Shown piece by piece: positions 36,001 through 39,000 of a stretch of 64,000 nt of DNA. This stretch comes from Escherichia coli (GTDB taxonomy: Bacteria; Pseudomonadota; Gammaproteobacteria; Enterobacterales; Enterobacteriaceae). The position numbers are program-made. Positions within the stretch are counted from its first letter, which is position 1; every line of letters begins with the position of its first letter. The DNA lies in NCBI RefSeq assembly GCF_003334785.1, contig NZ_QOWV01000005.1, one strand, 5' to 3'.

Positions 36001-39000
36001 ATATTTGGGACTATTTTAAAGCTATGGGGGTTGGTTGGTTGAAAACGAACATTCCTTTTTTGCTGGTTTGCATGTTCACAACAATACTTGTCTCCTGGTT
36101 TCAAAGTAAAAAGCAATTAGCAACTGAAGCTGTTAAATTTAAGCTTGATTCATTGAATCCAGTAAATGGCTTAAAGCGTATATTTGGCTTAAAAACCGTA
36201 AAAGAATCTGTTAAAGCAATTCTTTATATTATTTTTTTTGCATTGGCGATCAAAGTATTTTGGAGTAATCATAAATCACTGCTTTTTAAAACTCTTGATG
36301 GAGATATCATATCTTTATTATCAGATTGGGGAGAGATGCTATTCCTTCTCATACTGTATTGTCTCGGCAGTATGATAATTGTCTTAATTTTTGATTTTAT
36401 CGCTGAATATTTTTTATTTATGAAAGATATGAAAATGGATAAACAAGAAGTTAAAAGAGAATACAAGGAGCAAGAAGGAAATCCAGAAATTAAGTCTAAA
36501 CGCAGAGAGCGCATCAGGAAATTCTTTCTGAGCAATTGAAGTCTGATGTCAGTAATAGTCGTTTGATGATTGCCAACCCTACTCACATTGCAATAGGGAT
36601 ATACTTTAAGCCACATCTTTCACCTATTCCATTGATTTCTGTAAGAGAAACTAATGAGGTAGCCTTAGCCGTAAGGAAATATGCAAAGGAAATCGGAATA
36701 CCAATTATCACAGATAAAAAATTAGCACGAAAAATTTATGCTACCCATCGTCGCTACGATTATGTTAGCTTCGAAAATATAGATGAAATATTACGTCTTC
36801 TGCTGTGGCTTGAAGATGTGGAGAATGCTGGACAACCTGTTCCAGATGAACAGCTCTCTTCAGAAGATAAATTCATTGAAGGTGAAGAGAAAGAAATCGA
36901 GAATAAAGACGATAATTTAAAAAATTAAACATCTGTCGTAGTCAGAAATTTATAAGAATCTACACGCAAAAACCGTGTAGATTCATTATTTAATGAGTTA
37001 AATGATCTTGTGAAATGACAAGCAATTGATACATACTCATCTCTTTATAAGCTGGAACTGTAGTAACCTGTGCAAATTCGCGATATAGCTTTTGCTCCAG
37101 TTCTGCTGTAGATATATATTCCGGGTGTTCGCTAAAGAACTGTCTTGCATCTACTATCGCTTGGGATTCGCCACTTCTTTTATTTTGATTCTCCTTTAAT
37201 GAATTTTCTCTGGTGCATGCAGAGAGCAACGATATCAGCGCGATGGTTATTATGATTTTACTATTATATCCTACTAATGACATATCAACTTTCTCTTACG
37301 CAAGATTGGAGTTTAAAATAATGTTTATCCCATTCACAGAGTGCTATAAACAACTCAACAGTACCTTTTATGTTAAGTTTATTTAGGGCTCTTATTTTGT
37401 GATATGATACTGTTTTATAATCAATTCCTTTAATAATGGCTACTTGTTTTAACGAGTAAGAAACACATAACCGCAGGATATCTATATCATCATGGGTAAG
37501 TGCTTCTTGTGTGGAATACACATTTTGTGTATGAAGATTCGAAATCAGGAAATGCGTTAAATCAGATAATCTAATATTCTTATTGATCCTGATGAAATTG
37601 TTGCTTAAAAGGATGTTTACAGGTTCTGTATTTGGTTTGAGATTTCGATGTTGATGCTCATCAATAACAACGAATGAATGCCCAAGATCAACCAACGCAA
37701 CTAAATCGCTGTAATATTCTTTTTGGGATGCTAATAATGCATTAGTGACTACAGTGAAGTAGACATCACTGGAAAAGACTTGCATATGCCAACCTGTACT
37801 CTAAAATCATTTAGGGTAAATATTACGTGTAAAAGTTAAAATAAGAGTAATTGTTATATTTGCTTAACATTGGGGGAATAGGGTTTATACCTTAAATTGT
37901 AAATAAAGTTATGCATAGAGGCATTTAAAATAGTCCTCGAAATTATAATTTTTTATTCTGTGTCATCATATTTTGGTCATGAAATTTCCGTCTTGTTACA
38001 CTACTCTAAACTAGAGCTTATGGAATTAGCGGGTGCTATTCATGGAAAATAATGATAAATTCTTATCACAAGACTTATTGGAATCTTATGCCATTCGTTT
38101 GTTGAGCGGACCATTGAATGGATGCGAGTATGAAATACTTAATGGGCGTCTACTTGTTATCATTGGTAATGATGTTTCGTTAGGAAGAAGTGATGCTTTT
38201 TCTGAGTTACCAGAAAACACAATAGTCGTTCCTTATGGCGAGCTTACAGGTAGTTTTGAGATAATAATTACTACCGACCCTGATCTGGTAGTAACATTCA
38301 GAGAATTAACAGCACAAGAACCTGAAGATAGAACGTTAACATTGAATCAGCAAATAGAAGTTTTAGGTCTCAAATTTGCTGTAAAAGAAAAAAATGAAGT
38401 TTGGCAGTATTCATTGCCAGGCATTATTGAAAATAACATTATTTCTACAAAACAACATTTCTTTAGCAGTAAGCTGTTTAAGTATGTAATGCTTTTTTTT
38501 CTTTTTGCTATCATTTTCATTGCTTTTTATATTGTTAATGCCAGTAATGATCCGCAGCTGAGACATATCGATAAAATTCTTGTAAACAAAAACAGGAATT
38601 ATGAAATTTTATATGGTAGAGATCATGTTATCTATATTAATACCAATATTTTGGATGAAGCAGTCTGGGTCAAACAAGCACTGGAAAAAAATCAACCAGG
38701 AAAGCCAGTACGGGTGATAAATCCTGATGATGAATCGATACGAATTTTTTCATGGCTTGCTGATAATTTCCCTGATTTACAATATTTTAAACTTCAACTA
38801 TTAGATGCCAGTAATCTAAGATTGACAGTGAGTAAGCAACGGAACGCTATCACACAGCAACTAATCGATAATCTTATTAAAGGATTACTGCAAACTATGC
38901 CATATGCCAGCAATATAAGTATTGCGGTATTAGATGATAATGTATTGGAAAGTCAGGCTATTGAAACGTTGTCAGCGATAGGTCTTTCTTATGAAAAATA

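Follow-up and report, generated by a model that had tools for sequence, protein, structure and literature searches.

Does a gene whose two halves lie in different reading frames represent a switch, held at a short repeat and corrected by slippage, or is it simply an inactivated gene? The question is raised by epaS, the export-switch gene of ETT2, the second type III secretion system of Escherichia coli, in a 64,000-nucleotide stretch of an E. coli genome (contig NZ_QOWV01000005.1, assembly GCF_003334785.1), hereafter the window. A preliminary description had read epaS as a member of the YscU/SpaS (SctU) family that is split by a frameshift inside an AG repeat, with loss of the export switch unless slippage corrects it. 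The evidence presented here makes it very probable that epaS in the window is a fixed, vertically inherited pseudogene that originated from the loss of a single C, and not a slippage switch.

One gene in two frames

The argument is built on the following features of the gene.

35808 to 36928, + strand: epaS pseudogene (export-switch gene of ETT2, SctU/SpaS/YscU/FlhB family), 1121 nt versus 1122 nt in intact alleles, assigned by family models and labelled 'frameshifted' by the NCBI Prokaryotic Genome Annotation Pipeline (PGAP)
35808 to 36539, + strand: frame-0 open reading frame (ORF) of 243 aa; residues 1–235 are authentic EpaS (membrane domain and start of the linker), followed by out-of-frame IRKFFLSN and the TGA at 36537–36539
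36500 to 36928, + strand: −1 frame with the rest of EpaS (intact residues 236–373), comprising linker, NPTH motif and C-terminal domain
36575 to 36586, + strand: NPTH codons (autocleavage motif), not in frame with the gene start and read only in the −1 frame
36512 to 36513, + strand: frameshift site, where one C of the ancestral CC is missing by alignment with intact alleles
36504 to 36509, + strand: (AG)3 tract named in the preliminary description, not the site of the lesion and constant in length in the alleles compared
36232 to 36239, + strand: T8 homopolymer inside epaS, varying in length between strains

In the ORF listing of the window the 243-aa product ends ...EIKSKRRERIRKFFLSN and then the stop, i.e. 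...KRRERIRKFFLSN and the stop, and the −1 frame translates from 36500 to TQRAHQEILSEQLKSDVSNSRLMIANPTH... with its stop codon at 36926–36928. ORF reading therefore bears out the two-frame layout described earlier, an upstream ORF closed by a stop and a neighbouring frame open from 36500 through NPTH.

Gene and allele identity were settled by direct comparison. On the NCBIfam model NF006017 (367 positions) the N-terminal piece occupies positions 1–235 (E = 4e-103) and the C-terminal piece positions 234–366 (E = 1e-59); on the Pfam model PF01312, Bac_export_2 (335 positions), the pieces occupy 2–239 and 234–334. As the pieces cover adjoining halves of a single model, the two ORFs are one truly frameshifted gene and not a chance pair. 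Together they give a full-length match to the SctU/YscU/SpaS/FlhB family, and the name epaS is upheld by the family models as well as by the alignment with SpaS. The conserved NPTH motif is present in the C-terminal domain, though only in the −1 frame, and no single polypeptide joins the membrane and C-terminal cytoplasmic domains, the break lying at codon 235/236. The intact allele of O157:H7 (1122 nt, 373 aa) scores above the NCBIfam equivalog cut-offs of NF006017 (573.8 versus 394) and TIGR01404 (386.4 versus 358), whereas the fragments of the window, taken singly, reach 345.6 and 202.2 on NF006017, both below 394. Because the frame breaks and each fragment remains below the curated cut-off, the locus is a pseudogene of the family and not a functional member.

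A lost C beside the AG repeat

The window was aligned with five intact haplotypes, those of O157:H7 TR01, NA3664, 28Eco12, SCU-105 and e1-39. The five read GAGCGCCATCAG where the window reads GAGCGCATCAG; around the frameshift site the intact sequence is ...AGAGAGCGCCATCAGG... and that of the window ...AGAGAGCGCATCAGG..., and in a wider context all five read ...CGCAGAGA(G/A)CGCCATCA(G/A)G... against ...CGCAGAGAGCGCATCAGG... in the window. In length the sequences differ here by a single C, which the window lacks between 36512 and 36513 and which the intact alleles have as part of a CC pair. Intact codons CGC CAT CAG (Arg-His-Gln) become CGC ATC AGG (Arg-Ile-Arg), the codon pair that is hit being CGC-CAT, Arg235-His236 of the 373-aa protein, in the linker and about 21 codons upstream of NPTH. 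CC as the ancestral state finds support in the alignment with SpaS of the Salmonella/Shigella type, where ...RRELHIEILSEQ... stays in a single frame.

The shift had been placed within the AG repeat (36507–36512), and alignment with the intact alleles relocates it: the lesion adjoins the AG tract on its 3′ side and is outside the tract. The comparison of repeat length with other strains, proposed at the same time, gives the same length throughout, (AG)3 being shared by the window and four intact haplotypes (the O157-, SCU-105- and e1-39-types among them) and replaced by AGAGAA in the NA3664 type. AGAGAG is nothing unusual in the window, which has 21 copies where chance would give 13 ± 4.

Translation from the native start would produce EpaS residues 1–235, eight junk residues and a stop. 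The predicted product would retain the membrane domain with a portion of the linker and would lack both the NPTH loop and the C-terminal switch domain.

Frequency and descent of the deletion

Junction queries of 40 and 41 nt, in which every 28-mer seed had to span the junction, were searched in 5,426 complete E. coli genomes. The exact 40-mer of the deletion is found in 2,018 of them, and the CC-intact 41-mers, which form two haplotypes, in 343 and 358. The gene itself is found in 3,124 genomes, about 400 of which fall outside the three junction queries and include intact haplotypes with single-nucleotide polymorphisms (SNPs) such as those of SCU-105 and e1-39. Carriers of the deletion thus make up about 37% of the complete E. 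coli genomes and, where epaS is retained, about 65%. PGAP labels the gene 'frameshifted' in records whose epaS sequence is identical to that of the window.

Six deletion alleles were inspected, those of the window, S43, Ec-U14-2, XH2172, ecoli019 and O26:H11 FWSEC0001. A linked G at 36541 is present in all six and absent from all intact alleles inspected, and its presence in the six fits a single origin of the C deletion. We propose that the deletion would have arisen once, in the ancestor of a large E. coli lineage that includes O26:H11, and that the allele would then have drifted as neutral sequence together with a deletion of about 8.7 kb among the eiv genes and other lesions of ETT2. This ETT2 lineage is marked by the junction GCGCATC together with the G linked to it at 36541, which is of practical use in annotation and typing.

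Further damage has accumulated in epaS among carriers of the deletion. Stops occur earlier, at codons 23–24, in S43 and O26:H11; XH2172 has an internal stop, ecoli019 more indels and EC-16-35 an IS1 insertion. In strains with the same deletion the T8 run differs from that of the window by +7 T (Ec-U14-2), +6 (XH2172) and −3 (ecoli019); this run, and not the AG tract, would be the site of epaS that is prone to slippage or to sequencing error, and part of its variation may be sequencing noise. The ratio of nonsynonymous to synonymous substitution rates (dN/dS, Nei-Gojobori) is 0.05 between distant intact alleles, about 0.7–1.5 when the window is compared with each of four further deletion alleles, with only 2–16 substitutions per pair, and about 0.4–1.5 over all pairs among the deletion alleles tested. 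The secondary lesions and, weakly, the raised dN/dS suggest that selection was relaxed after the C deletion.

Strain F2_81 (NZ_CP043542.1, a pig isolate from Australia) had been a candidate carrier of the C deletion despite its divergence. Its epaS is also 1121 nt long and 96.9% identical to that of the window. The candidate was rejected, since alignment reveals a private lesion, AGAGGCTCCATC, which a single genome of the 5,426 carries: at positions equivalent to 36504–36513 of the window F2_81 reads CGCAGAGGCTCCATC and the intact sequence CGCAGAGAGCGCCATC, i.e. an A has been lost and a G changed to T. This different and private lesion explains why the dN/dS between F2_81 and the window is intermediate (0.25); it consequently offers no evidence for recombinational spread or for recurrence of the C deletion. 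Two different net losses of 1 nt, the common C deletion and the lesion of F2_81, thus lie within 5 nt of each other. The latter may be a genuine mutation of independent origin or an assembly error of that one genome, and taken alone it does not suffice to make the site a hotspot.

Reinitiation, recoding and slippage

The alternative that survives best, although very unlikely, is that epaS has become a functional split gene, its N-terminal fragment acting with a C-terminal fragment initiated separately at the TTG of 36536, or retaining with the products of epaP, epaQ and epaR (EpaPQR) a residual non-secretory role. The TTGA at 36536–36539, in which a stop overlaps a potential start, and the intact state of epaP, epaQ and epaR speak for such a gene, and degenerate ETT2 islands are still reported to affect phenotypes (PMC3977695, PMC11068852); those phenotypes, however, are generally ascribed to regulators of ETT2 (PMC11068852). 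Neither the TTG nor the downstream ATG is preceded by a Shine-Dalgarno-like sequence, and nothing would tether a C-terminal fragment to the membrane domain. Moreover, the N-terminal part is itself interrupted at codons 23–24 in O26:H11 and S43, and the dN/dS within the clade is about 1. A broader reading has an equally slim chance. It holds either that the CGCAGAGAGCGCC segment is a local hotspot for indels or a site at which inactivation is selected for, or that EpaS 1–235 and EpaPQR, with or without a C-terminal fragment reinitiated at the TTGA of 36536–36539, have a non-secretory membrane role in some 2,000 genomes.

Programmed recoding, by a −1 ribosomal frameshift or by transcriptional slippage within 36500–36539, would yield some full-length EpaS. 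The geometry allows it, as the frames overlap by about 40 nt and a −1 shift anywhere in 36500–36536 would join them. The overlap, however, contains no X XXY YYZ heptamer (none of the in-frame heptamers has this form, over 36497–36539) and no run of at least 4 bases, its longest homopolymer being 3 nt. The correction by slippage invoked in the preliminary description is therefore unsupported: it has no basis in the sequence of the overlap, and no variants in AG length were found. The locus lacks the slippery heptamer of a programmed −1 frameshift site. Its intact relatives use one frame throughout, so that the shift is derived and not a conserved recoding site; secondary inactivating lesions, in addition, build up in epaS of related strains. 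Recoding is for these reasons highly improbable.

It is hardly credible that the AG repeat is a phase-variable contingency switch, gain or loss of a unit during replication or transcription toggling epaS. The (AG)3 tract lies just 3 nt upstream of the lesion, and a deletion allele that lost an AG unit would in principle regain the frame, the product derived from the sequence being KRRAHQEIL. A contingency locus would nevertheless toggle through polymorphism in repeat number, and here the (AG)3 length is invariant, the repeat being equally long in intact and frameshifted alleles; on the deletion background the frame-restoring (AG)2 variant and the (AG)4 variant both have 0 matches in 5,426 genomes. 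The 21 copies of AGAGAG in the window are near chance expectation, known contingency loci have repeat numbers far above three dinucleotide units, and the partner genes required for an ON state have been deleted.

Finally, an error in the sequencing or assembly of this one genome, the true sequence being CC and epaS intact, is conceivable in that single-base indels are a common assembly artefact, but its probability is negligible: it is excluded by the identical junction 40-mer in 2,018 independently sequenced and assembled complete genomes from many laboratories and platforms, the deletion is linked to the nearby SNP at 36541, and two C residues do not form an error-prone homopolymer.

Decay of the surrounding island

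The gene lies in the E. coli ETT2 island, the cluster of epr, epa and (eiv) genes similar to Salmonella pathogenicity island 1 that is found by glyU, between the xdh/ygeV and yqeF/yqeG sides. The tRNA-Gly gene glyU ends at about 31260, in agreement with the reported position of ETT2 adjacent to glyU (PMC3977695, PMC11068852), and annotated ETT2 loci from many strains are collinear with the window. The other features of the island are the following.

33031 to 33039, + strand: junction of the ETT2 deletion of about 8.7 kb, a 9-bp overlap (short direct repeat) located by alignment with O157:H7 and 28Eco12
33118 to 34105, + strand: epaO (SctQ) pseudogene, frameshifted after residue 25
34095 to 35799, + strand: epaP, epaQ and epaR (SctR/S/T), reading frames intact
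40575 to 41167, + strand: orgA (SctK) pseudogene, frameshifted after residue 17
38042 to 39223: eprH (PrgH/SctD homologue), intact in the window, as in P13-6, a collinear record that is about 100% identical to it
31404 to 33005: remnant of pkgA (glycoside hydrolase family 15, glucoamylase), with an internal stop and its 3′ end cut off by the 8.7-kb deletion

Relative to O157:H7 and 28Eco12, the deletion of about 8.7 kb starts at the 3′ end of pkgA, stops in the 3′ part of eivJ and has removed a ghoT-like gene, eivF, eivG (SctC), eivE, eivA (SctV), eivC (SctN), eivI and most of eivJ. In agreement with this, tblastn of the window gave no match for eivF, eivG (SctC), eivA (SctV), eivC (SctN), eivE or eivI. 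Small direct repeats are known to flank eivJICAEGF (PMC5422975), and a deletion isoform of 8.74 kb is on record for ETT2 (PMC11068852). Frameshifts are also present in ygeJ (a lytic transglycosylase gene) and ygeF, and an internal stop in ygeK. The genes epaP, epaQ, epaR, eprH, eprI, eprJ and eprK are still intact, as judged by tblastn and by the collinear record. The remnant of pkgA is split by PGAP into ygeQ and a hypothetical protein.

A frameshift in eprH of the window, such as that of EC-14-2-9, was considered and rejected, tblastn and the near-identical collinear record both giving an intact gene. eprH is frameshifted in EC-14-2-9 and in O157:H7 but intact in the window; this variation among strains indicates that the lesions of ETT2 are lineage-specific and still accumulating. 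EC-14-2-9 (NZ_CP093283.1) also carries an integrase-bearing island together with ISEc12 and IS421 between glyU and the pkgA remnant, all of them absent from the window (31260–32442). From these insertions, the glyU site is still used for integration in some strains.

An injectisome would require SctC, SctV, SctN, SctQ, SctU, SctD, SctJ and SctR/S/T to be intact, and the window does not hold this set. The island is non-functional for secretion even before epaS is considered. The export switch should indeed be lost, as first described, in so far as the frame-0 product is without the whole C-terminal switch domain; the consequence drawn from it is moot, as the island is without sctC, sctV, sctN and further essential genes and has more pseudogenes. 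With the secretin, SctV, the ATPase and other parts missing, the frameshift of epaS would add no further loss of secretion.

Weight of the evidence

Several points weigh against a plain, neutrally drifting pseudogene: (i) the dN/dS support for drift is quantitatively weak, as it is built on very few substitutions; (ii) the frame-0 TGA (36537–36539) overlaps a TTG (36536–36538) that is in frame with the downstream piece, and weak termination-reinitiation may give a free C-terminal fragment; (iii) that full-length EpaS would be absent is deduced from the sequence; (iv) the junction 40-mer of the eiv deletion occurs in 1,925 genomes, near the 2,018 of the epaS deletion, although these are separate counts and were not matched genome by genome; and (v) the intact epaP, epaQ and epaR could be a sign that some of the operon is under residual selection, being equally compatible with short genes that have not yet been hit. 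Set against them, nothing in the sequence would support correction at the level of DNA, RNA or ribosome, and the loss of one C, inherited vertically, accounts for epaS in the window. The split was already known, and the gene is an ordinary annotated pseudogene in a decayed island. The case matters little beyond being a quantified instance of the well-documented decay of ETT2, and in screens for virulence genes this epaS allele should not be counted as a functional component of a type III secretion system.

Comparison with known systems

EpaS (ECs3721) of ETT2 is intact in O157:H7, in the enteroaggregative E. coli 042-type and in phylogroup D strains such as those of sequence type 69 (ST69), and epaS is listed as a gene of 1122 bp (PMC3977695 Table 1). 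With these intact alleles the window shares the locus, the gene order (epaO-P-Q-R-S, etrA, eprH-K), the position by glyU and a nucleotide identity of 94.7–97.1%; it differs in being one C short, with the frame broken at codon 236. The likeness extends to the SctU family with NPTH autocleavage, which comprises SpaS, Spa40, YscU, EscU and FlhB. Intact EpaS aligns end to end with SpaS (8axk_K, E = 8e-108), and the cleaved chains of SpaS, YscU and EscU in the PDB start at the residue aligned to P258 of EpaS, which is the NPTH position; in the window, by contrast, the N- and C-terminal halves are in separate frames. For the atypical enteropathogenic strain F2_18C (ST302), a published genome analysis reports the same gene as 'split into two ORFs' (PMC6985150). 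The 'mutational attrition' of ETT2 is described in passages of PMC3977695, PMC11068852 and PMC7058095 that cite Ren et al. (2004, J Bacteriol 186:3547). Among the isoforms produced by this process the window represents the common degraded form, with the eiv deletion between short direct repeats and scattered frameshifts and stops, and is of the same kind as the rest.
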